Shown piece by piece: positions 13,525 through 40,213 of a DNA stretch of 45,924 nucleotides. A program made the position numbers and the translations under genes. Position 1 is the first letter of the stretch; each line of letters begins with the position of its first letter. Under the pieces are notes generated by a model. It was not told where the DNA came from. It was given only the letters and a program-made list of their open reading frames with translations, and made no database searches. Source of the stretch: Desulfobacteria bacterium (GTDB lineage: Bacteria > Desulfobacterota > Desulfobacteria > Desulfobacterales > C00003060); contig JAQYVR010000239.1 of NCBI GenBank assembly GCA_030145395.1, forward strand, positions 1 to 45,924, read 5' to 3'.

Positions 13525-14337
13525 TTATAGGCCCTGAAGCTGTTCCAATATACGGCCCTTTTCCTTTTCAAAGTCTTCGTCCGTAATAAGGCCCTTATCC
13601 TTCCATTCTTTCAACGTTTCCAGTTTCTTTTCCAGCTGGTCCGCACCACTAGTAGAGACAGGCTCTTTAGTTATCACCTCTCTCGACACGGGTTCGGGCG
13701 ACGGTGCTACCCTCTCCTGGAAGGTCTCTGCCGCGACTTGCGGCTCCATGCTCAGATCCCGGACCACTTTCATGACCTGCAGGTGAGAGTCCTTTCTCAC
13801 GAACATGCCGACTTTTTCTTCGATCCGCCAGTCCTTGCTGTCGAGCCTGAAGGGGTTCTCGCCCACCCACCTCAAACCGTCGATCTCCTTGAATACCCAG
13901 ACCAGCTTATCATCTTTCAGATAGACCTCTCCATTGGTGGGCCGACCGCCCCTGCCCGGCGCATCAAACACGATCTTGTCCGATCTTGTGGCCCCTTCGA
14001 AGGCAACAGCCAGTGCGGGAACCAGTCTTTCCCTGGCCGCCTGCGTGAAGACCGGCCTGCTGACCCACTTGCTCCCCATGCCGTAGTTGCCCCACTTGTG
14101 CTCCATGACGACGAGCAGATCGACCTCGCTTCTGATCGTCTCCTCGCCGAATTCATGGGGATGCTGATAGTCCATGTTGACCGGAACACCGTCTTTGCTG
14201 CGGCTCCGGTGGAGCTTGACAATGTCATCAGAGAGATCGGCCAGGGGAACGGTCAGAACCTCGGACGAACGTAAACCACACCCGATCATCATCACGGAAA
14301 TGATAAGGCAGATGGAAATGGAAAGCGTCTTTTTCAT
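13525..14337 (-). CDS. Lipoprotein with C-terminal SHOCT domain
   Basis: MKKTLSISICLIISVMMIG-C signal; C-terminus LETLKEWKDKGLITDEDFEKEKGRIL. The longer ORF-track start runs through a terminator. Confidence 0.8.
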   Translation of the reverse strand: MKKTLSISICLIISVMMIGCGLRSSEVLTVPLADLSDDIVKLHRSRSKDGVPVNMDYQHPHEFGEETIRSEVDLLVVMEHKWGNYGMGSKWVSRPVFTQAARERLVPALAVAFEGATRSDKIVFDAPGRGGRPTNGEVYLKDDKLVWVFKEIDGLRWVGENPFRLDSKDWRIEEKVGMFVRKDSHLQVMKVVRDLSMEPQVAAETFQERVAPSPEPVSREVITKEPVSTSGADQLEKKLETLKEWKDKGLITDEDFEKEKGRILEQLQGL

Positions 14338-14370
14338 AGGGCACCCATAAGAGGTAACACTGTTGATGGT

Positions 14371-14403
14371 AAAAAAAGCCCCCTCCGCAATGGAGGGGGC
14401 TTT
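14371..14403 (-). terminator. Rho-independent terminator
   Basis: Minus strand AAAGCCCCCTCC-ATTGC-GGAGGGGGCTTTTTTT, just after the stop at 14429. Confidence 0.85.
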
Positions 14404-14428
14404 AGTCATAGAGCCTTAGCACACAAGA

Positions 14429-14668
14429 CTAAGGGAAGATAATGGTAAAAGAGGCAAAGAGCACGTCGGAATTCACATAACCGGCGTTCCCTGAGAACAT
14501 CAGGTCAAACTGGAGGTTCTCGGTGAAGTAGTAACCCAGGCCAAGGTTGTACGTCGTGTAGTCCCAGGTCTCTTCGTCTTTAGTGGTAAGGCCGGATCCA
14601 TAAGCCTCTGAATCCCATGGAATTGCAGTGGCACCGCCAGAATTTTGCTGATCCTGGGGGCCGACCTC
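14429..14668 (-). pseudogene. C-terminal remnant of an outer-membrane beta-barrel-like protein, fused in frame to wecE
   Basis: ...TYNLGLGYYFTENLQFDLMFSG...VLFASFTIIFP*: alternating beta-strand pattern unrelated to aminotransferases. Confidence 0.55.
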
Positions 14669-15381
14669 TTCGCTGGGCAAGAACGACGACCCAATATCCA
14701 CCCAGGTGTATTTATCCACCTCACCCCTGAAGAACTGGCCGCGGTTGGTCCCTTTCTCACGGACTATTTCCGCCCTCTCAATGAACCGGGAATCGTTTAC
14801 AAGCAAAGCCCCTCCCTCGCCGCTGATGATGTTTTTGGTCTCATGAAAGCTCAGACAACATAGGTGGCCGATTGTACCGAGGAATCTCTCTTTGTGGGTG
14901 GACAGCAGTGCCTGGGCTGCATCCTCTACCACCCACAAGCCGCGGCTATCGGCGATTTCCATGATCTTCTCCATAACACAAGGTATGCCGGCATAGTGCA
15001 CCGGCACAATCGTTCTGGTCTTTGGAGTGATGGCCGACTCTATTTTCCGTTCGTCTAGGGTCAGGGTATCCGATCGGATGTCAACAAAGACAGGGATTGC
15101 CCCGCGCAGGACAAAGGCATTGGCCGTGGAGACAAAGGTGAAAGACGGTATGATCACTTCGTCTCCAGGCTCAATGTCACACAGAATGGCGGCCATTTCG
15201 AGTGCGGCAGTGCAGGAATGCGTCAGGAAAGCCCTGGCACATCCCAGTTTGTCCTCCAACCATTCATGGCAGCGTCCCGTAAACGGGCCGTCACCGGATA
15301 GGTGAGATCCACCATGACCGCCTGGGCAATATAGTACAGCTCTTTTCCTGCGATAAACGGCTTGTTAAACGGAATTTTCAT
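14669..15381 (-). pseudogene. wecE: dTDP-4-amino-4,6-dideoxygalactose transaminase, frameshifted and 3'-truncated
   Basis: MKIPFNKPFIAGKELYYIAQAV from ATG 15381, frameshift near 15310, then HLSGDGPFT..SCTAALEM..EDAAQ..SFHETKN..VDKYTWVDIGSSFLPSE, where similarity stops. Confidence 0.88.
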
Positions 15382-30006: not shown

Positions 30007-31922
30007 ATCTGTTTTACGTTACAACACCGATCTATTACGTAAATGCCCGTCCTCACCTGGGTCATGCCTACACCACAGTGGTAGCCGATGTCCTGAATAG
30101 ATTCCACCGGATGTGCGGTCGTGAGACCTATTTTCTGACAGGGACAGATGAACATGGTGACAAGGTAGTGCAAGCAGCCAAGCGAGAAGGCCTGAGTCCG
30201 CTGGTCTACGCGGACCAGATCAGTGATCTCTTCAAAGCGTTGTGGCCTGAACTCGACATAGAATATGATCACTTCATACGAACCACACACCCTGCCCACA
30301 TGAAGGTTGTCAAGGAAGTCCTGCAAAAAATCTATGACGCTGAAGATATCTACTTCAGCGAATACGAAGGCGCATACTGTTTTGGATGTGAGCGTTTCTA
30401 CACAGACCGCGAGTTGGTAGACGGGAGATGTCCGGACCACAAAACTGTTCCCCAGGTGATCAAGGAGTCCAACTATTTCTTCAGAATGAGTCGATACCAG
30501 GACTGGCTCATCGATTATATCAACACGCATCCGGATTTCATCCGCCCAGAGCGTTACAAAAATGAGGTGCTAGCCTTTTTACGGGAGCCCCTTGAGGATC
30601 TGTGCATATCCCGCCCTAAGAGTCGCCTTCAGTGGGGGATTGCCCTTCCCTTTGATGACCAGTACGTCACTTATGTCTGGTTCGATGCCCTCTTGAACTA
30701 TGTCTCTGCCCTGGGATATCCGGATGGTGAGCCGTTAAAGAAATTCTGGCCGGCCGTTCAGCATCTTATAGCCAAGGACATCCTCAAACCACACGGAATA
30801 TACTGGCCGATCATGTTGAAGGCAGCGGGCATTCCTCTCTTTCAGCACCTTAATGTCCACGGGTACTGGAACGTGGACGAAAGCAAGATGTCCAAAAGCA
30901 TTGGAAATGTGGTGGAACCCCTTGAGCTCAAGAGTCAATACGGCACGGATACTTTCCGATACTTCCTCATGCGCGAGATGGTTTTCGGCCTGGATTCCAG
31001 TTTTAGCGAAAAGGCCCTGGTGCAGCGTATTAACTCTGATCTTGCCAATGACCTGGGGAATCTCTTCAGCCGGAGCCTGACCATGGTCCACAAGTACTTC
31101 AAAGGGATCGTGCCCAAAGGTGATGCAGCTCCAGAGAGTAACCTGGATCTCAATATAAAGTCGGAGGCCGGCAAGGCAGTTCAGGAGTATAAAAAAGCAA
31201 TGGAAGACCTTGCCTTCCATAAGGCCCTCATGGCGATTTGGGAATTTATAAACCATATCAACAAATACATAGACCTAACTGCCCCGTGGGAACTGGCCAA
31301 GAGAAAGGCCCAGAACCAAGAGCTCCAGACAGTCCTTTACAATATCGTGGAAGGTCTCCGCATCATTGCAGGACTGATTTACCCCATTATGCCGCGGACC
31401 TCCCTGCTTATGAACGAACACCTTGGGATGTCTTCGCCCCAGACCTTCCAGAAACTGGATGACCTCATCGTTTGGGGGAAGACACGAGCAGGAACAGAAC
31501 TGCCAAAAACGATTACGCTGTTTCCCAGGATTGACGAGGACAAACTGAAATCTCTGAACCAGGATGCCATCATGTCCAATGAAACGTCGCCTTCGCCAAA
31601 GCCTCAGATCTCAATGGACATGTTTCAGAAAATGGATCTAAGGGTTGCCACCGTGATCCATGCCGAGCCTGTTCCAAGGTCCAAAAAGCTTTTGAAATTG
31701 AAGGTCAATGTGGGAAAAGAGCAGACAGTCGTCGCCGGCATCGCGGAGAACTATCAGCCCGAGGACCTGATCGGGAAACAGGTAGTTATCGTGGCCAATC
31801 TCAAGCCGGCCAAGCTGATGGGCATCATGTCGCACGGGATGGTCTTGACAGCCTCCGACGGCAGTACCTTCAGGCTGGTGACCGTGGACGGCCCGTCTGA
31901 GCCAGGCACTCCCCTTGCATAG
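30003..31922 (+). CDS. metG: Methionine--tRNA ligase
   Basis: PHLGH (HIGH), GTDEHG, YVWFDAL, KMSKS, C-terminal tRNA-binding OB domain. Confidence 0.98.
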   Translation: MNLFYVTTPIYYVNARPHLGHAYTTVVADVLNRFHRMCGRETYFLTGTDEHGDKVVQAAKREGLSPLVYADQISDLFKALWPELDIEYDHFIRTTHPAHMKVVKEVLQKIYDAEDIYFSEYEGAYCFGCERFYTDRELVDGRCPDHKTVPQVIKESNYFFRMSRYQDWLIDYINTHPDFIRPERYKNEVLAFLREPLEDLCISRPKSRLQWGIALPFDDQYVTYVWFDALLNYVSALGYPDGEPLKKFWPAVQHLIAKDILKPHGIYWPIMLKAAGIPLFQHLNVHGYWNVDESKMSKSIGNVVEPLELKSQYGTDTFRYFLMREMVFGLDSSFSEKALVQRINSDLANDLGNLFSRSLTMVHKYFKGIVPKGDAAPESNLDLNIKSEAGKAVQEYKKAMEDLAFHKALMAIWEFINHINKYIDLTAPWELAKRKAQNQELQTVLYNIVEGLRIIAGLIYPIMPRTSLLMNEHLGMSSPQTFQKLDDLIVWGKTRAGTELPKTITLFPRIDEDKLKSLNQDAIMSNETSPSPKPQISMDMFQKMDLRVATVIHAEPVPRSKKLLKLKVNVGKEQTVVAGIAENYQPEDLIGKQVVIVANLKPAKLMGIMSHGMVLTASDGSTFRLVTVDGPSEPGTPLA

Positions 31923-32144
31923 CTGCGACTATCCAAACACCCTCTAATACACGCTAAAAGCATCCCTCCGTACACGCCAGTGCCCATTTCCTCAAGAACA
32001 CACCACCTTGATATTGATATTTTCTATATCATAGCCAAGCTTTTATCGATATTAAGTATTGGACTTCCTGCACCTGCTTCTAATAATATACTAAGTCAAT
32101 ACGTCACAAAGGGGCGACCAAAGGAAATCATCAGAGTGCAAGAT

Positions 32145-32651
32145 ATGAAGAACATATTTATCTCGCTTTGGCCCTATCGTTTGATCCGCCTTGGCCTTGG
32201 CGTGATCTTTGTGTGGGCCGGCATAGTCAAACTAAGTGACCCGGAAGTCTTCGCCAACATCATTTCTGCCTATGAATTGGTGCCGGAGGGCTTGCTGGTT
32301 CCGGTGGCTATTGGCCTTCCCGTCTTGGAGCTGGTTGCAGGGCTGGGTTTGATCTTCGACGTACGGGGCAGCTTGAGCCTTACGTTTGGCCTGTTGGTCT
32401 TGTTCGCGTTTGTCCTGTGGTTCGGCATCTTGAAGGACCTGGACATTGACTGCGGTTGTTTTTCTGCTGATGAATTACGGGAACATGGCGCATTGAGGAT
32501 AGCCCTTTACCGGGATCTGGGGATGATGGCCGGGGCGCTTTACCTTTTCTGGTGGCGCAGGGCCACTCGATCCTTTCCCAAGGGCGCGCTTTTCCTGCGG
32601 ACCATAATGGAAGGTAATGGTTTCCTAAAGAGGCTTAGACAGACAACATAG
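32145..32651 (+). CDS. MauE/DoxX-family membrane protein
   Basis: RLGLGVIFVWAGIVKLSDP, LPVLELVAG, DIDCGCF, RD; about 4 TM; start placed at ATG 32145. Confidence 0.88.
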   Translation: MKNIFISLWPYRLIRLGLGVIFVWAGIVKLSDPEVFANIISAYELVPEGLLVPVAIGLPVLELVAGLGLIFDVRGSLSLTFGLLVLFAFVLWFGILKDLDIDCGCFSADELREHGALRIALYRDLGMMAGALYLFWWRRATRSFPKGALFLRTIMEGNGFLKRLRQTT

Positions 32652-32671
32652 TGGAAGGAGGCACTGAACGT

Positions 32672-33193
32672 ATGTGTAACAGAAAGACTTTTCTGGTTGT
32701 ACTGATGTGTGCTGTGCTGGCGTTGGGTCTGGCAAGCAGCGGGCTTTGTTTTGGAAAAAAGGAGCTGGACACCGAAACCGTCGCCGTCAAATTTGCCAGG
32801 GAACTCCAGAGAGGTGGATACAAAATAGTAAAGACCAATGAACTAAAAGACTGGATTGACCAGAAGAAAGAGATGCTTATTATCGATACCATGCCCTATG
32901 AAGCAAGCTACAAGAAAAACCATGTCCCCGGTGCTGCTCAGTTCTTGTTTCCCATTATAGAGATGACGGAGTGGAAGACCGCTGAAACAGACGGAAAGAC
33001 CAAGGAAGATTTTGGAAAACTCTTGGGCAAGGATAAGAACAGGCTGATCGTCATATACTGCGGATTCACCAAGTGTGGCCGGAGCCATAATGGCGCTATG
33101 TGGGCAGTCAAACTCGGATACACCAATGTCTATCGGTATCCGGGCGGAATAAAGGCCTGGAAAGAAGCTGAGTATCCGGTCAAAGAACTCTGA
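32672..33193 (+). CDS. Exported rhodanese-domain protein
   Basis: AAGGAGG RBS, signal peptide, IID, HVPGA, active-site loop YCGFTKCGRS, GYTNVYRYPGGIKAW. Confidence 0.9.
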   Translation: MCNRKTFLVVLMCAVLALGLASSGLCFGKKELDTETVAVKFARELQRGGYKIVKTNELKDWIDQKKEMLIIDTMPYEASYKKNHVPGAAQFLFPIIEMTEWKTAETDGKTKEDFGKLLGKDKNRLIVIYCGFTKCGRSHNGAMWAVKLGYTNVYRYPGGIKAWKEAEYPVKEL

Positions 33194-33233
33194 TAGACAT
33201 GGAACCTATTTCAAAACCCTTTGAGGGAAACAG

Positions 33234-34289
33234 ATGACTTTTTTTAGGAGAAAGAAGACCCTAACCGGCCTGTCACGCACCTGCGGTTGAGCGGCCAAGA
33301 TTGGTCCGGCGGATCTGTCGGAAGTGTTGAAGTCATTACGGCCCTCAGATGATCCCAACCTGCTGATCGGTTACGAGACATCTGACGATGCCGCCGTTTA
33401 TAGGGTTTCACCCGACATAGCGGTGATCAGCACCGCCGATTTCATCACACCGCCGGTAGATGATCCATACTGGTTTGGACAAATTGCCGCTGCCAATTCC
33501 CTGTCCGATGTCTATGCCATGGGAGGCACGCCTCTCACAGCGCTGAACTTGGTCATGTTCCCTTCCAAAAAGCTGGACATGGGCGTGTTGAAGGAGATTC
33601 TTCGTGGCGGCACAGACAAGGTTCTGGAAGCGGATGCTTCCACGGCCGGAGGACATTCGGTGGATGATAATGAGCCGAAGTACGGTCTGTCTGTCACTGG
33701 GGTCGTGCATCCTGACCGGATTCTCACCAACAGCGGTGCGCAACCGGGTGACGCGCTAATTCTCACCAAACCTCTGGGCACGGGTGTTCTCTTTAATGCC
33801 AACCGTTCCGGTAAGCTTCCCTACCGCGAATTGGAGGCCATCCTTCCCCAGGTTGCCTCCCTGAATCGAAAGGCCTTGGAACTATCTTTGAGGTTCGACA
33901 TTCATGCCTGCACGGATGTCACAGGGTTTGCCATCATGGGACACACGCTCGAGCTGGCAAGGGGAAGCGGGGTTCAGATCGATCTTTTCTACGACAAGCT
34001 TCCTTTTTATCCAAACGCGCTTGACATGTACCAAAGGGGCGAAACCACAGGAAGCAACAAGTCCAACAGGAAACTGGCCGAGGGGTTCTGGGAAACCGAC
34101 ACAGAAATATCTGCTGAGCAAGAAGCACTCCTGTTCGATCCTCAGACATCCGGAGGACTGGTCATCTCCGTTGCAGAGGATCAGGCGGATACCTGCCTAA
34201 AGGAACTGCAGGATAACGGAATCCCATTGGCAGCGATCATTGGACAAGTAGTTGGTCACAATCCGAATGGAAGATTACGGATTACTTAG
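33234..34289 (+). CDS. selD: Selenide, water dikinase (selenophosphate synthetase), selenocysteine-containing
   Basis: ATG 33234 reads MTFFRRKKTLTGLSRTCG-UGA(33288-33290)-AAKIGP in frame with the tracked ORF; DDAAVY, DFITP, AANSLSDVYAMGG, GGHS, TKPLGTG, TDVTGF, DPQTSGGL. Confidence 0.95.
33299..33319 (+). promoter_or_regulatory. Putative bacterial SECIS hairpin
   Basis: GATTGGTCC-GGC-GGATCTGTC stem-loop with a G-containing apical loop beginning 17 nt after the UGA. Confidence 0.6.
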
Positions 34290-34515
34290 CAAATATCTTA
34301 ACACCACCTCAATCTGCTTTCTCGATTGTTTCTATTAGGCGCGGCCCATCCCAAACTACTGTACTTCGTCCCGTAAAATACAGAGTTTACCCCATTTACC
34401 TTGTACACTGCCCAGGTTATGGTACAAATCGACTCATACTTCTGTGCTCGGCTTCCGGAGTTAGCGTTATTGGGCTTACAGTCTATACTAAGCAATCATG
34501 TGACACATAAAGAAG

Positions 34516-35340
34516 ATGCCCCGCCTAAAAGAACTCTTTCTAAATAAACCGGAGTGCGTTATCGATCTTCCGGAATGGCTGCTTTCCCCGGAGAAGGTTG
34601 AAACATACCGTGCCATGTCCGGGCTCGCCATCGTTGAAATTGCAGGCCGCGACAGCGTGGCCGCAGTCGTGAAAGGTGTGGAGGCGGAGGGCTTCACCGA
34701 CCTCCTTCCCACGTACGTCTATACGGGGACAGAACACGGGCAATGGGAAAGTGTGGAAAAGGCGGTCGATCGTCTGGCAAGCCGGCTGCCCGAAGTGCGC
34801 GTCCACAATATGATGGTCCTGGGTTCTCCCGGTTTTTGGCATGCCCTAAACGGACGATTTATCAGTGAGTTGCGTTCAAGATATGGTTTTTCCACACCCT
34901 GTGTAGGCTGCCACCTCTATCTCCACACCGTTCGTATCCCGCTCTCCATAATGCTCGGTGAACCGCCTATCATCGCAGGAGAAAGGGAAAAACATGACGG
35001 AGCAATTAAAGTAAACCAGGTTTCGGAAGCCCTGGACGTCTACCAGAACATAGCCAACGATTTTGGGGTGCGGTTACTCCTTCCTATCCGCCACATCGTG
35101 GAGGGAGCCCGCATTGCGGAGATCCTGGGATTTGAGTGGCACGCGGGCCAGGAACAGTTGGGCTGCGTTTTGTCCGGAAATTATCGAGGATCAGACGGAA
35201 GCATCAAAACGACCGCCCAACAGGTTCAAAGATACCTGGCAGAATTCGCTGAACCGTGCGCCAATAAGATTATCGAGTCATATGTTGCAGGGGATATTCC
35301 GGATCATCTGGAAATAGCTGCCCGAGTCCTGAAGGTCTAA
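34516..35340 (+). CDS. Uncharacterised PP-loop-like (adenine nucleotide alpha-hydrolase) protein with CxxC and distal GC
   Basis: AIVEIAGRDSVAA resembles SGGxDS; TPCVGCHLY; IIAGE; LGCVLSG. Motif order matches ThiI/MnmA-like sulfurtransferases. Confidence 0.65.
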   Translation: MPRLKELFLNKPECVIDLPEWLLSPEKVETYRAMSGLAIVEIAGRDSVAAVVKGVEAEGFTDLLPTYVYTGTEHGQWESVEKAVDRLASRLPEVRVHNMMVLGSPGFWHALNGRFISELRSRYGFSTPCVGCHLYLHTVRIPLSIMLGEPPIIAGEREKHDGAIKVNQVSEALDVYQNIANDFGVRLLLPIRHIVEGARIAEILGFEWHAGQEQLGCVLSGNYRGSDGSIKTTAQQVQRYLAEFAEPCANKIIESYVAGDIPDHLEIAARVLKV

Positions 35341-35486
35341 TACAGGCTCCCACCTTTGAGCTTTCATGTTGCAGCTCCTTCAACCAATTATCCATACATT
35401 CACTCAGTAAAAGGGTCCCCCATTTATTGGTGTTTTCTATTTGCCTTAGCCCTCTTTTCAACGTACTGTGTAATTGAGCAAAGGAA

Positions 35487-36347
35487 ATGGTAAGAAAGAA
35501 AGCTGACAATCCGTTGACCGCATCCGAGAAACACTCTTCCACCATCACCAGTGTTCAAACTGCTGCCGAACCAAAGCTGGCGATGTGTAATATCTTTCCT
35601 GACGTTGACAGACTCAAGGCTTTTGCCCGTGAACACGGGTTTTCCGGGATTGACTGGTCCTTTGACATGCAGGCGTTACCCGACACGCCTGCAGAAGAAT
35701 CAATTTGGGCAAAGCAGTTCTCCCGCCTGGGCTCCCTTGAGATTCGGTATCATTGCCCCTTTTACAAAGTGGACTTGGGTCATCATGACCCGTGGAAGGC
35801 CGAGGCGGCCGGGGCCCTTTTTCGTCGGATTATCCGTCTTGTCTCCAAAGCGCAGGGGAAATGTTTGACTGTTCACATTGGGCTTGGCCGTGATTCGACT
35901 CAACCTCTCTCATGGGAAGCAACAACGGAAAACCTGGCACGGCTGGTTCAATATGGTGCAGACCGTGGTGTGAAAATATGCCTCGAAAACCTGGCCGAGG
36001 GCTGGACGAGCAGGCCGGATATTTTTGAAAAGCTTGTTCGTCGAGGTGGCAGCGCAGTAACCTTTGATATCGGTCATGCCCACGCATCCGAATCTATAAA
36101 GAGCCAACATTACGCCATCGAAGATTTTGTTGCACCTCACGCGGATAGCGTCATCAATGCCCACATATACCATACAGAGGTTTCCGGCCATGGACATACC
36201 CCCCCAGACCGCCTGGAGGACATTGAAGACCGCCTCTCCATATTGCGAAGAATCGGTTGTAATTGGTGGGTCCTCGAGGTGAGAGAAGCTGAGGGGTTAT
36301 TGCGAACAAAGAGGATTGTGGAAGAGTATTTGAAACGAGCAGACTAG
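35487..36347 (+). CDS. Xylose-isomerase-like/AP-endonuclease-2 TIM-barrel metalloenzyme (start uncertain)
   Basis: YHCPF, VHIG, CLENL, FDIGHA, AHIYH, H.PP, VLE metal-ligand pattern. Confidence 0.85.
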   Translation: MVRKKADNPLTASEKHSSTITSVQTAAEPKLAMCNIFPDVDRLKAFAREHGFSGIDWSFDMQALPDTPAEESIWAKQFSRLGSLEIRYHCPFYKVDLGHHDPWKAEAAGALFRRIIRLVSKAQGKCLTVHIGLGRDSTQPLSWEATTENLARLVQYGADRGVKICLENLAEGWTSRPDIFEKLVRRGGSAVTFDIGHAHASESIKSQHYAIEDFVAPHADSVINAHIYHTEVSGHGHTPPDRLEDIEDRLSILRRIGCNWWVLEVREAEGLLRTKRIVEEYLKRAD

Positions 36348-36452
36348 CAAGAATCTCCTGCCTAATCCCCCGTTGATAGGCCTCACATCCCCCTTCGTTT
36401 TGCCCGCAGACACAGCAGACAGCGCCAACAATCAGCTTTAGGGTTCGGACAT

Positions 36453-36487
36453 TTTGGCCTTGAGGGCTCTAAGCCCTCAAGGCCAAA
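36453..36487. terminator. Probable bidirectional terminator between convergent genes
   Basis: TTTGGCCTTGAGGGCT-CTA-AGCCCTCAAGGCCAAA perfect 16-bp stem. Confidence 0.85.
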
Positions 36488-36516
36488 TTTGTTCACGGTT
36501 AACGATCTGAGCAAAA

Positions 36517-37677
36517 CTAGAATCCAACGGCAATCTGAAACGTGAGGATGTCCTGGTCATCTCTTGTGAAGTCACTCTCTTGATTAACCTGGGTATAATC
36601 TGCGCTGATCTTGCAGTTGTGCCCTTTCATATAATAATTCACCCCAACACTGTAAAAGTCAGTCTCGAACTCCCTATCCACATCCACGGTTTCATACCGC
36701 ACGTAGGGTTGCAAATGGAAAGGGAAAAGATATCCTGCCTGAACATACCAGTTCTCGGCATCGTCGCCCTTGTCCAAAGAAGTGAAACCCTGATCTGTGG
36801 TACAGTGTTCAATATCGATATAAGCAGCCTCTGCTGTGACCGCACCGTCTCCCAGAGGATGGTCAAAGAAAACATCAGCCGTCCATACCGAATTATCGTC
36901 CTCAGCAACAGCACCCACCGGGTCGATATCGTCTTGACTATCAAAGCCCAAGCCTAGACTCAAGACCTTTTTCTTCCCAAGGTAAGTTCCCTTGTTGAAC
37001 CAACCCGTCTCTGGCTCTAGCAGACTGAGCGACACACGGCCGACGAACCTAAGGTTGTCGTCCGGATTCTCACTACTCTCAACCCCTTCAGAGACCATAA
37101 AGCGGTATTGCAGAAGCCCGTCCATAGGATTGCCCCATAGGGTTACACCGTCATCTCGTCCGACCTTGCTCGTATAAAAGATACCACCCCTGATGCCACC
37201 CTGGAGAAACGGGAGATCAGTGGTCAACATTGCCTTTGTGGAAGTTGTGCCATAGTTACGCGTCAGCGGCACATACATGCGTCCCGCCTGAACCATGAAG
37301 GCTGGATGGAAATTGAAGGTAATCCACAAATCGCGCCAGGCAACGCCACCCCCTAGCCCGAGGGAGGTGTCTTCTGTCAACTCATCCTGACCAACGCGGT
37401 CTGAGGCAATGTGGGTGAAAAAGCTAACCAGATCTGTCACGTCACCCTTCAGATAGAGATAGGCCCGGCGGATCAAAAAATCGTTCAAATCTTCGGTACC
37501 GCTGGCTGTGACCTTGCCGTCCTCAACCGACTGGAACCAAGCCTGCGCCCAGATGCCTGCCTCTAAGTTTGCATTGTCACCCAGGTCGGCCTTTATGCCG
37601 GCCGACGCCGGATTCATCATGCCACAAACAAGAAACGCCACAACGATTGTTGCGGAAAATACGGCTAATCTCTTCAT
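36517..37677 (-). CDS. Outer-membrane porin, OprO/OprP superfamily, ExtI-like
   Basis: Signal peptide, F.IRRAYL, GRDDGVTLWGN..G.LQYR, GTYLGKKKVL, NYYMKGHN.K, terminal Phe; AGGAGG RBS. Confidence 0.82.
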   Translation of the reverse strand: MKRLAVFSATIVVAFLVCGMMNPASAGIKADLGDNANLEAGIWAQAWFQSVEDGKVTASGTEDLNDFLIRRAYLYLKGDVTDLVSFFTHIASDRVGQDELTEDTSLGLGGGVAWRDLWITFNFHPAFMVQAGRMYVPLTRNYGTTSTKAMLTTDLPFLQGGIRGGIFYTSKVGRDDGVTLWGNPMDGLLQYRFMVSEGVESSENPDDNLRFVGRVSLSLLEPETGWFNKGTYLGKKKVLSLGLGFDSQDDIDPVGAVAEDDNSVWTADVFFDHPLGDGAVTAEAAYIDIEHCTTDQGFTSLDKGDDAENWYVQAGYLFPFHLQPYVRYETVDVDREFETDFYSVGVNYYMKGHNCKISADYTQVNQESDFTRDDQDILTFQIAVGF

Positions 37678-38174
37678 ACGTATTCCTCCTGTTGTTGAAA
37701 ATCATATCATCTACAGGATATCAAATGTCTTCCAGATCAGACGGGCATCACCTCCTTTTCACGGTAAACCAGCAAGCCGCCCATGGCGTTGCCTGTACTT
37801 CCCGTGACCGAACCCCTCTTAACGACAATCGTTTTTCAGTAATTGGCAATATTTCCTACTAAAAGGATAGGGTATTTGTCAAGTTTTTGGTTTCTTCATA
37901 GGTAAAGCCCAGGTCATCTCTTTACCCTGAGAAAAACCCAGAAGGGGGTTCTTGAGCCCCTTGGTTTCTGGCTGCCTCGAATGTTTCGAATATTTTCTAT
38001 GTATCACATAGAAATGTCAAATAGCTAATATCAGCAATTTGACCTGATCGTTATTAGATATCCTGATGGAAGCTCCCTGCAGCAAGATTTCGGCACACTC
38101 CTATCCAAACAAATTTCCTTAGAATCTATAGTATGATATGATTTCTGCAGCTTTCACCTGTTAGACAATTGACG

Positions 38175-39455
38175 ATGGAAACCGATCTGAACAAATGCAA
38201 GCGATGCGGCCAGTGCATGAGTGTGTGCCCTGTCTACCAAGCAACGTTCCAAGAATCTGATGTGGCACGGGGTAAATTGGCCCTGCTGGAGTGCGTTGAA
38301 GCGGGCACCATAAATGCGTCGGAGCGTCTTGAAAGCATCCTTTCCCGGTGCCTTATGTGCGGAGCCTGCTCCCAGGTTTGTGCAAACAAGGTTGAAACAA
38401 CGCTCATCATGCAAACAGGGCGCGAGAAGCTTTTTGAGACCGGAAAGAAAGGCCAAACCGAGAGAGCCTTGTTCGGAGCCGTACGGGAGGGGCGATTGAG
38501 CGCCAAGGTGCTCCTCAAGGGTGGTTCCCTCCTTCAGGCCCTGGCCTGCAAAAAGATCCCGGAAACCAGCGGACTGCATCTTCGGTTCCCTCTCTCATTC
38601 TTCACTGCAAGGAGGACGGCTCCTCCCATCGCCTGGAAACCATTTCTGCAACGCGCTCAATCTGAGCCGGCCGTTACGGGGGAAGGACCGCGGATCGGGC
38701 TCTTTGTGGGTTGCGGTGCCAACTACCTATTTCCGGATACATCCCGTGCCCTTGTGCGTATCTTGAGACGTATGGGAGTAACCCCGGTTATTCCAGGGGA
38801 CCAGATCTGCTGCGGCCTGCCTGCCTATGTTTCGGGTGATACTGAGACTGCACGAGAGTCGGCACTTAAGAATATCGAGGCGTTCAAGTCTCTTGAGCTT
38901 GATGCGATCCTGACCGTGTGTGCTTCATGTGGATCACACCTGAAGGCCCTCCCGTCCCTGTTTTCAGATGACTCTTCATCCCGTAATGCCGCTGCTTCAT
39001 TAGCAGGAAAGCACATGGACGCTATGACCTTTCTCGTAGACCATCTTGATTTTGAAGTATTTCTTAAGAATCTTCAGTCGGCTAAGCCACAGAAGGACAC
39101 GAGGCCTTTGCGAGTTGCCTATCATGATCCCTGTCATCTCAGGCTTGGCCAGGGAATCACCCAGGCACCCAGGAGACTCATCGAGGCATTACCCGGAGTG
39201 CAACTGGCAGAAGCTTCACACCCCGGCCAATGTTGTGGCCACGGAGGGGAGTTTAACCTCTCTCACTTTGCCCTATCCATGAAGATCCTGGACCGGCGTA
39301 CGGAGGACTTCAGAAAGGTGAACCCCGAGACGATTGTCACGGGTTGCACGGGGTGTCTTCTGCAACTGGCAGAGGGAATAAGCCGAAACGGCCTGGCAGG
39401 AAGGATTGAAGTTTGTCACCCGCTGGTTCTGGTAGAAAAAGCTATTGAACCATAG
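38175..39455 (+). CDS. (Fe-S)-binding oxidoreductase subunit, GlcF/HdrD-like
   Basis: Two CxxCxxCxxxC motifs, two CCG domains (CCGLP, CCGHGG), YHDPCHL. Confidence 0.9.
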   Translation: METDLNKCKRCGQCMSVCPVYQATFQESDVARGKLALLECVEAGTINASERLESILSRCLMCGACSQVCANKVETTLIMQTGREKLFETGKKGQTERALFGAVREGRLSAKVLLKGGSLLQALACKKIPETSGLHLRFPLSFFTARRTAPPIAWKPFLQRAQSEPAVTGEGPRIGLFVGCGANYLFPDTSRALVRILRRMGVTPVIPGDQICCGLPAYVSGDTETARESALKNIEAFKSLELDAILTVCASCGSHLKALPSLFSDDSSSRNAAASLAGKHMDAMTFLVDHLDFEVFLKNLQSAKPQKDTRPLRVAYHDPCHLRLGQGITQAPRRLIEALPGVQLAEASHPGQCCGHGGEFNLSHFALSMKILDRRTEDFRKVNPETIVTGCTGCLLQLAEGISRNGLAGRIEVCHPLVLVEKAIEP

Positions 39456-39594
39456 ATCAAGGACGTGCGTGTTGAGAACAAATAGTGCTCTAAAGAATAA
39501 GGGCCTATGCTGGCCCTGCCCCCCCTTGGAGATCGAATATGGACTTAGCTCTTAAACTTACTTCTCACCAGGAGTACGGCCCGAGCGGTCAAAA

Positions 39595-39837
39595 TCACTT
39601 AGAAACGTCTTCAGGCTTCCCAAGGATTAAAAGCACCTTACCTACTTGTGGCCACGTCATGGCGCCCTGTTCGCACAAAATTCTTCCGAGCAGTCGGTGG
39701 GGTTCCTCAGCAATATCATCTTCGACTTGGGTCTTCAATGCCACCAGAAGTTGCTCTAGTGCAATAAACCCCTCTTGTACTGCGATGTGTCCAAAACGCA
39801 CTTCGCTGTGAGCTATCTCTCCCTTTTTGTCTGACAT
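39595..39837 (-). CDS. Small standalone MshEN-like protein
   Basis: RFGHIAVQEGFIALEQLLVALKTQ followed by LLGRILCEQGAMTWPQVGKVL; GGAAGGA RBS. Confidence 0.7.
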   Translation of the reverse strand: MSDKKGEIAHSEVRFGHIAVQEGFIALEQLLVALKTQVEDDIAEEPHRLLGRILCEQGAMTWPQVGKVLLILGKPEDVSK

Positions 39838-39958
39838 GTAATTGTTCCTTCCGATTTATTATTGATATAGACCGAAGACTCCAAAAAAACCGAAGCAGCG
39901 ACAAATGCGGGGCTATGATGGCCTCGCCTTCACTTTTCGAAATGCCGTTAATGCTCTA

Positions 39959-40213
39959 TTACTTGTCTCCACAGGTTCCTTGGTCAGTCGCCTTTGCCCT
40001 TTCCTCTTGAGACATCCCCGATAGTCGTTCCACCCCCTTGATGCTCAGCTTTAGCCCTTTGGCGACCCGGCGACCGTAATCGGGATCAGCCTTGTAAAAA
40101 ATTGCTGTCTGACGCATCTGTATCCGTTTTTTCGCACCGCTGAGGTGGTCCACAATATTGCTGATTAGATGACTTCGATCCTTGGCGGTCATGACCCTGC
40201 GATAAAGCTCGCC
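39959..40213 (-). pseudogene. C-terminal fragment of a monofunctional heme catalase
   Basis: GELYRRVMT..DRSHLISNIVDHLSGA...IQMRQTAIFYKADPDYGRRVAKGL; no heme domain upstream. Confidence 0.8.

Follow-up and report, generated by a model that had tools for sequence, protein, structure and literature searches.

A window of 45,924 nucleotides (the whole stretch of DNA that was analysed, from contig JAQYVR010000239.1 of assembly GCA_030145395.1, a Desulfobacteria bacterium related to sulfate reducers of marine sediment) contains a group of genes around selD, which is read here in a selenocysteine (Sec) form. Directly downstream of selD lies a gene for a protein of 274 amino acids, hereafter X274, followed by a gene for a TIM barrel protein. 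Both proteins are encoded in a conserved gene cassette that recurs beside selD and other selenium genes in relatives, and the region is a candidate composite selenium locus. The features of the locus are as follows:

32145-32651, plus strand: MauE/DoxX-family membrane protein with a CGC motif (PF07291, 86 bits)
32651-33193, plus strand: exported single-domain rhodanese with the active-site loop CGFTKC (CxxxxC) (PF00581, 66 bits)
33234-34289, plus strand: selD, Sec form (TIGR00476, 342 bits against a cut-off of 125)
34516-35340, plus strand: X274, PP-loop-fold protein by predicted structure, without a Pfam or NCBIfam family
35487-36347, plus strand: xylose-isomerase-like, metal-dependent TIM barrel (PF01261, 81 bits against a gathering threshold of 31)
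36453-36487, no strand: hairpin with a 16-bp stem between the convergent TIM barrel and porin genes (simple hairpin scan)
36517-37677, minus strand: ExtI-family outer-membrane porin, a selenite/tellurite-linked family, convergent (NF040900, 169 bits against 150; PF07396)
38169-39455, plus strand: CCG/4Fe-4S protein, GlpC/GlcF/HdrD-like, divergent from the porin (Pfam and NCBIfam matches)

An earlier annotation made from the letters of this DNA alone (the sequence-only reading) had listed the same seven genes, and Pfam and NCBIfam scans, together with the predicted structure in the case of X274, confirm their coordinates and domains. The start of the rhodanese gene overlaps the MauE stop codon (32651), and the gaps that had been put at about 230 and 150 bp measure 226 bp between selD and X274 and 146 bp between X274 and the TIM barrel gene. 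The hairpin at 36453-36487 is likely a bidirectional terminator that closes the unit running from MauE to the TIM barrel. A simple scan found no hairpin as strong (16 pairs) in either the selD-X274 or the X274-TIM gap. The region 31000-40000 gave no Rfam match at E values up to 1, and an alignment of the selD-X274 gaps of six loci revealed no conserved element in common.

The conservation of the locus was studied in a set of homologous loci comprising 29 from genomes, 80 from metagenome contigs and the window itself, which are labeled with L-numbers (e.g., L092); a single-sequence scan of genome contigs for X274 returned just 4 loci. The 101 X274 loci at 40% identity or higher collapse to 72 clusters at 85% identity, 23 of which are flanked by 4 kb or more on each side (well-flanked clusters). 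X274 is the core of a tight conserved cassette with the TIM barrel and an ApgM-like phosphotransferase. The gene order is X274-TIM-ApgM-like in the group with 53-91% identity and ApgM-like-X274 in the group with 40-49% identity. The genes found within 8 kb of X274 are distributed as follows:

ApgM-like: 50 of 72 clusters, 21 of 23 well-flanked
TIM barrel: 44 of 72, 15 of 23 well-flanked
any selenium marker: 23 of 72, 7 of 23 well-flanked
selD: 16 of 72, 6 of 23 well-flanked
Carb_kinase-like: 14 of 72, 5 of 23 well-flanked
YedE: 12 of 72, 5 of 23 well-flanked
DUF1858: 12 of 72, 3 of 23 well-flanked
Se_S_carrier: 11 of 72, 5 of 23 well-flanked
YedF: 10 of 72, 3 of 23 well-flanked
MauE and rhodanese: 5 of 72 each, 2 of 23 each well-flanked
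ExtI: 3 of 72, 2 of 23 well-flanked

X274 and the TIM barrel are strongly enriched beside selD and other selenium genes in relatives. The chance of finding a given single-copy gene within 8 kb in a genome of 3-4 Mb is about 0.5% per lineage by a rough estimate made here, and the absence of enrichment near selD that the sequence-only reading had contemplated is not what was found. When neighbouring open reading frames (ORFs) were clustered in an unbiased manner, selD, YedF, the Carb_kinase-like protein, YedE and Se_S_carrier ranked directly behind the cassette genes, and the control genes metG, holB and PSP1, scored in the same loci, were present in the two closest relatives only. Judged by their model scores, the YedE, YedF, Se_S_carrier and selenium-metabolism LysR (LysR_Se) neighbours are true members of selenium families: YedE reaches 485 bits against a cut-off of 200 (TIGR04112), YedF 221 against 110 (TIGR03527) and LysR_Se 291 against 250 (NF040786), and Se_S_carrier matches Pfam PF11823.

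The cassette and selD are joined in at least five gene orders: MauE-rhodanese-selD-X274-TIM-ApgM (L092), YedE...X274-TIM-ApgM-selD-YedF (L093, L106), selD-YedF-X274 (L089, L090), ApgM-X274-selD(-YedF) (L136, L140) and X274-Mqn genes-selD (L049, L052). When the selenium-linked label is mapped on a maximum-likelihood tree of X274, at least eight changes are needed, at least five of them forced by well-supported branches, and selenium-linked loci are found in both deep X274 clades. The label is also clustered on this tree, as none of 500 shuffles needed as few changes.

Several other genes were observed in these neighbourhoods. A Carb_kinase/YjeF-C-like protein (~295 amino acids), a DUF1858 redox-disulfide protein (77 amino acids) and Se_S_carrier sit between YedE and X274 in L093, L106 and L081 (in L106, for example, at L106:7764-8651 and L106:8632-8865). 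In one genus (L049:2048-3540, L052:3338-4809), the space between X274 and selD is occupied by futalosine-pathway-like genes, namely MqnA/MqnD (PF02621) and a PNP_UDP_1 nucleosidase; such genes also occur upstream of MauE in two metagenome loci (e.g., L092:2265-4969). In the closest relatives of the window (L008:5898-7390, L065:7300-8776 and L130), the interval between selD and X274 holds a YedE-like half-transporter (195 amino acids) and a ResA/TlpA-like thiol-disulfide oxidoreductase, in contrast to the window, where only the 226-bp gap is present at this position.

X274 has no match in Pfam or NCBIfam (NCBIfam release of June 2026). Homologues number 888; among the best 120 listed, every source name is 'hypothetical protein' and the taxa are mostly Desulfobacterota metagenome-assembled genomes. 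Within the phylum, X274 was detected in 26 of 401 sampled genomes, with a strong match in 17 (own genome included). The AlphaFold model of X274, which has a predicted local distance difference test score (pLDDT) of 95, is closest to YcfA (Z 22.4, root-mean-square deviation 2.6 over 217/222 residues; Foldseek E 7e-9), with which it shares just 13-15% identity. ThiI (Z 13.9) and QueC (Z 10.4) come next, then MnmA, LarE, NcsA and TtuA, and the ESM Atlas clusters nearest X274 consist of unnamed Thermodesulfobacteriota proteins, with QueC/ThiI-like clusters after them. The model suggests that X274 folds as a PP-loop adenylating enzyme, the activity being predicted, and structure comparison bears out the PP-loop assignment made in the sequence-only reading.

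The sequence of X274 was also checked for the SGGxDS phosphate loop of PP-loop enzymes. X274 has the variant A/S-G-R-D-S (the GRDS loop), which occupies the PP-loop position in every core-subfamily row of the X274 alignment (A1) and is matched by no Pfam PP-loop model. Three cysteines, Cys129, Cys132 and Cys217, are invariant in 26/26 sequences of this alignment. TtuA/TtcA-type enzymes hold a [4Fe-4S] cluster through three cysteines (CxxC...C). Thiolases of the TtuA, TtcA, NcsA and LarE type (methanogens for LarE) belong to the same fold class as X274 (Z 7-9.5), and the CxxC...C triad of X274 falls at their cluster position, suggesting that X274 may bind a cluster as well. In contrast to these thiolases, X274 lacks a Pfam ATP_bind_3 match and the zinc-finger and tRNA-binding domains, and it is much nearer to YcfA.

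YcfA, a component of the Erwinia amylovora YcfA-YcfC system (PDB 9kq6/9kq7), is a PP-loop enzyme of 6-thioguanine synthesis, in which it adenylates GTP and attaches cysteine; according to the published study, Arg18 and Asp19 are essential and the system could also serve to make a seleno analogue (PMC12494993). Arg45 and Asp46 of X274 fall about where these two residues sit, such that both proteins have an Arg-Asp pair in the phosphate loop. X274 differs from YcfA in its three invariant cysteines and in its TIM barrel and ApgM-like partners, and no YcfC-type pyridoxal phosphate lyase is found among the conserved neighbours.

Variants of the X274 family were noted as well. Seven genomes carry distant paralogues (23-31% identity) in a conserved operon of the form efp - epmA-like - X (L054-L061; e.g., L055:9567-10454, L058:6818-7669); in these paralogues the three cysteines are kept and the GRDS loop is absent (alignment A1). 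The epmA-like gene of this operon encodes a truncated class II lysyl-tRNA synthetase of ~305 amino acids, and the paralogues may represent an undescribed factor related to modification of elongation factor P. The only fused form found (P0126, 526 amino acids, from a metagenome) combines a C-terminal X274 domain (39% identity) with a second PP-loop domain at the N-terminus, which is of the NAD-synthase, ATP_bind_3 or QueC type. The fusion provides no clue to the substrate. Candidate Sec-containing variants of X274 were rejected, as L062 proved to be a degenerate fragment and L082 carries a frameshift.

The model of the TIM barrel (pLDDT 89) is about as close to ketose epimerases as it is to isomerases and to endonuclease IV (Z 21-24), and the protein's sole sequence match in the PDB is the uncharacterised protein MJ1311 (E 1e-6). 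The match to the phosphodiesterase CbiR is weak (42 bits against a cut-off of 105). The invariant residues His89, His130, Glu167, Asp194, His197, His226, Glu231, His237 and Glu264 form an unusually histidine-rich set, and this pattern is nearer to the nine-ligand trinuclear site of endonuclease IV than to the four-ligand site of sugar isomerases. A phosphoesterase role for the TIM barrel is plausible because of this endonuclease IV-like pattern and the weak CbiR match. Complex predictions weakly suggest that X274 and the TIM barrel associate, with a score of 0.57 (best control 0.00), agreement between runs in at least 51% of contacts, and a pLDDT of at least 90 for the partners. The mark used for such predictions lets through 116 of 157 solved complexes and also 2 of 215 mismatches, and scores of 0.60 or less comprise just 18 of the 157 solved complexes together with both passing mismatches.

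The third gene of the cassette is present elsewhere in the same genome. An ApgM-like orthologue is encoded at C21:7106-8410 (C-numbers denote contigs of the assembly), 3.5 kb from selA, and it escaped the sequence-only reading because it lies on this other contig. The protein is 56-67% identical to the cassette partners found elsewhere and scores 309 bits against TIGR00306, under the cut-off of 320, as compared to 290-342 bits for those partners. Because canonical GpmI and GpmA are also encoded in this genome, the ApgM-like protein is interpreted as a surplus phosphoglycerate mutase-like protein rather than as a glycolytic enzyme.

The selD gene was read from the ATG at 33234, with the TGA at 33288-33290 (codon 19) translated as Sec to give the motif SRTCGUAAKIGP. 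The product has the N- and C-terminal AIRS domains (PF00586 and PF02769), and the Sec residue is located in the N-terminal glycine-rich loop. The stretch 3' of the UGA forms a hairpin that is no better than those of shuffled sequence in a check for a selenocysteine insertion sequence (z -0.5). Among the 401 sampled genomes of the phylum, selD is found in 368, and the listed matches almost all carry one in-frame TGA.

It had been proposed that none of the usual selD partners is in the window. This holds for the window itself, in which selA, selB and selU are absent, and where no SenB-type (TIGR04348) or EgtB-like gene occurs among the Pfam and NCBIfam matches, the whole genome not having been searched for these two. 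It does not hold in the sense of an orphan selD, since selA lies on contig C21 (C21:2198-3613) and selB is split across the ends of contigs C33 and C135. With selA and selB in the same genome, SelD therefore supplies at least selenocysteine synthesis. A search of this assembly, which is 89% complete, gave no match to selU (TIGR03167), and tblastn detected none of YedE, YedF, Se_S_carrier, the Carb_kinase-like protein and DUF1858. A complementarity between selU and X274 was considered and dropped: selU is absent from all 10 other X274 genomes, or 0/11 with the present one, but its background in the phylum is just 26/401, such that the comparison is uninformative.

The MauE and rhodanese genes form a conserved pair that recurs by selD, YedF and LysR_Se. 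Orthologues of the rhodanese (53-72% identity) were found in 53 of the 401 sampled genomes of the phylum; MauE lies directly upstream in 25 of the 29 loci from other genomes, and selD, YedF or LysR_Se is located within 1.5 kb in 5 of these 29, the flank being limited to that distance. A C_GCAxxG_C_C (seleno)protein gene follows the pair in ~7 of the 29 loci (L008:3614-4327, L156, L160-L163, L171 and L173) and is absent from the window, where the rhodanese is followed directly by selD. A TGA flagged in one rhodanese orthologue is upstream of its start and was rejected as an in-gene Sec codon. Both the pair and the ExtI porin of the sequence-only reading reappear in cassette loci elsewhere.

The rhodanese has an N-terminal signal-like segment, and its top NCBIfam match is the rhodanese part of the selenoprotein TsoB (NF045694, 100 bits, far under the full-length cut-off of 805). 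It aligns to positions 5-157 of TsoB, a rhodanese/DsbD fusion, and a membrane redox partner is present in both systems; MauE is proposed to be the membrane thiol-disulfide partner of the rhodanese. The rhodanese of the window has CxxxxC (Cys) where TsoB has UxxxxU (Sec), as given in the available part of a 2026 review (PMC13188914), and a separate MauE in place of the fused DsbD-like domain. Elsewhere in the same genome, a rhodanese ORF that resembles TsoB and contains two TGA codons in frame (603-residue open frame) was observed at C133:29598-30050, and ~11 kb from it, at C133:17965-18846, is a LysR-family regulator with 48% identity to a selenium-metabolism LysR that passes NF040786.

The porin match to NF040900 spans positions 3-392 of 403 and is above the equivalog cut-off. 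In Geobacter, ExtI has been associated with the reduction of selenite and tellurite, and ExtH is a rhodanese-like lipoprotein considered together with the porin in selenite uptake, according to the available part of that study (PMC5877670). The likeness to ExtH-ExtI consists of a porin that passes the ExtI cut-off and an exported rhodanese encoded nearby. In contrast to ExtH-ExtI, the rhodanese of the window is TsoB-like and paired with MauE, and the porin gene is convergent to the rhodanese operon and lies outside it. Pfam scans found no multihaem cytochrome ext genes among the ORFs flanking the porin, and therefore only the porin family, not the ext cluster, is shared with Geobacter. The GlcF-like gene beyond the porin had also been counted as a member of the locus, which is not borne out: a CCG/4Fe-4S gene accompanies the cassette only in L064, which is the closest relative, and at a distance of 5.4 kb in L045.

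The flanks of the locus contain housekeeping genes, including uvrB, coaBC, ruvAB, tol-pal, holB and metG upstream and an IMPase-family gene and recD2 downstream; the assembly as a whole comprises 288 contigs. Further away, on the minus strand (13525-15259), a DegT/DnrJ/EryC1-type aminotransferase match in ORF 14429-15259 covers only profile positions 36-213 of 360, and the adjoining ORF 13525-14409 has no match at E 1e-8. The two ORFs may be a split or fused gene.

It is judged about as probable as not that the region is a composite selenium locus with a proposed substrate, selenium donor and product, and the locus is a strong genomic lead for a putative new selenium-linked pathway. This reading builds on the observed gene identities, folds and recurrent linkage to selenium genes, and from these we infer the order of import, reduction, activation and insertion put forward in the sequence-only reading, together with a selenium product and co-transcription. 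Three modules would be involved. The first, for uptake and delivery, would consist of the ExtI-type porin and the exported CxxxxC rhodanese, kept reduced by MauE; in the genome of the window these proteins may fill the uptake role, as YedE and YedF were not found there. The second would be the Sec-type SelD of the cell, which would also feed the selA/selB machinery encoded elsewhere. The third would be X274 and the TIM barrel, two members of the three-enzyme cassette whose ApgM-like third gene lies by selA.

In the proposed mechanism, X274 would consume ATP and adenylate an oxygen (carbonyl or carboxyl) on a nucleotide or another phosphorylated small molecule, as YcfA does with GTP. X274 would then exchange the adenylated oxygen for selenium. 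The selenium donor might be selenophosphate, or a hydroselenide on an iron-sulfur (Fe-S) cluster held by the three invariant cysteines. The other two enzymes, the metal-dependent TIM barrel and the ApgM-like protein, would act on phosphoester groups, either in the precursor or in the product. A more specific proposal, possible though doubtful, is that the three cassette enzymes (X274, the ApgM-like protein and the TIM barrel as a metalloenzyme) constitute a further SelD-dependent trait of selenium use. X274 would then represent a new type of enzyme for forming carbon-selenium bonds, an adenylating PP-loop selenotransferase, maybe Fe-S-dependent, and the product would be a seleno-nucleotide, a seleno-cofactor or a small selenometabolite of anaerobic bacteria in sediment. 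Under this proposal the Carb_kinase-like and DUF1858 proteins would assist the cassette in other lineages.

The cassette has been compared with the few specific selenium routes that are already known, namely selenocysteine, 2-selenouridine, the cofactor of molybdenum enzymes and the more recently discovered selenoneine and ovoselenol, as listed in the available part of the 2026 review (PMC13188914). The known SelD traits (Sec, selU, yqeB/yqeC, senA/senB, ovs) and the present loci are alike in that selD lies among dedicated enzymes and the selenium carriers YedE, YedF and DUF3343, a pattern through which the sen cluster was discovered, but they have no enzyme in common with X274, the TIM barrel and the ApgM-like protein. 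The mining of selD contexts behind the sen cluster, as far as the available text describes it, counted only genes that overlap selD and lists selA, TIGR04348, selU, yedF and duf3343 (bioRxiv 10.1101/2022.04.13.486033). None of the three cassette proteins is named in the available portions of that preprint or of PMC13188914. Similarly, term searches of a 2015 comparative study of selD neighbours (PMC5322559) turned up no mutase, isomerase, PP-loop protein or ATPase, and the sole 'kinase' there is an unrelated tRNA kinase. A full-text search for selD or selenophosphate together with phosphoglycerate mutase or a gene cluster returned nothing relevant, subscription journals and supplements being outside its scope. 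In the literature covered, parts of which were available only as excerpts, the X274-TIM-ApgM cassette is undescribed, and neither Pfam nor NCBIfam holds a model for X274.

A number of results weigh against a selenium pathway built on this cassette. First, 16 of the 23 well-flanked clusters have the cassette alone, with no selenium gene nearby, and of the 10 sampled genomes in which both X274 and selD can be located, 9 have them on different contigs. The link between cassette and selenium is facultative, because about two thirds of the well-flanked loci lack a selenium gene nearby. The phylogenetic profile of X274 against selD was set aside, as selD is present in all 16 other core-X274 genomes, which is uninformative given its presence in 368/401. 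The metagenome loci were picked by one conserved peptide pattern, which may have biased the sample. At the sequence level, no link between X274 and YcfA was found: the A1 profile has no significant match in the PDB, and none to YcfA at E values up to 10. The X274 profile does not match the TtcA-like protein of the genome significantly either (E 0.16); this non-significant alignment pairs AGRDS with SGGKDS and PCVGC with PCFLC. With regard to co-transcription, the 22 sequencing runs returned in a search for RNA data were all DNA, mostly from marine sediment. Finally, PP-loop enzymes with the X274 fold normally insert sulfur or nitrogen, and YedE, YedF and rhodaneses also have sulfur-handling relatives.

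These last points lead to the alternative that X274, the TIM barrel and the ApgM-like enzyme serve sulfur insertion or general metabolism, for example the synthesis of a thio-nucleotide or thio-cofactor, and share chalcogen carriers or regulation with selenium metabolism without using selenium as a substrate. All characterised structural relatives (YcfA, ThiI, MnmA, TtuA, NcsA, LarE and QueC) insert sulfur or nitrogen, the clusters with the cassette alone are consistent with such a role, and the YedE and rhodanese families have thiosulfate-handling relatives, as seen in weak TsuA matches. However, the neighbours lie far above the selenium-specific cut-offs (TIGR04112, TIGR03527, NF040786) and do not fall to the thiosulfate models, selD is the commonest conserved non-cassette neighbour (16/72 clusters), and the displaced ApgM-like gene adjoins selA. 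On balance, a sulfur module is considered rather unlikely.

A second alternative places the cassette upstream of SelD, where it would salvage selenide from an organic or phosphorylated selenium compound imported via YedE or ExtI and supply it to SelD. YedE, YedF and Se_S_carrier flank the cassette even where selD is not in view (L081, L083, L088, L094, L118 and L123), and kinase-like, mutase-like and isomerase- or esterase-like enzymes are the usual constituents of a salvage route. However, ATP-dependent adenylation by a PP-loop enzyme typically goes with insertion and not with release, and no lyase-type enzyme is found among the conserved neighbours, making salvage a distinctly improbable explanation. 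The weakest alternative, in which there is no functional link and selD serves selenocysteine only beside genes brought together by inherited synteny or chance among related genomes, would fit the presence of selA and selB, the relatedness (and hence non-independence) of the loci and the clustering of the selenium-linked label on the X274 tree, but is very improbable given the several gene orders, the selenium-linked loci in both deep clades and the frequency of selD beside X274 (6/23 and 16/72) relative to the ~0.5% estimated per lineage.

If the reading as a composite selenium locus is correct, the cassette would represent a candidate further selenium route, consisting of conserved enzymes that are found beside selD, YedE, YedF, DUF3343 and LysR_Se and that can be cloned. 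The MauE-rhodanese-porin set would likewise offer a model for the entry of selenium in bacteria where YedE and YedF are not found. For the X274 family, with its 888 detected homologues and its listed members named 'hypothetical protein', the linkage to selenium genes would provide a first functional handle.

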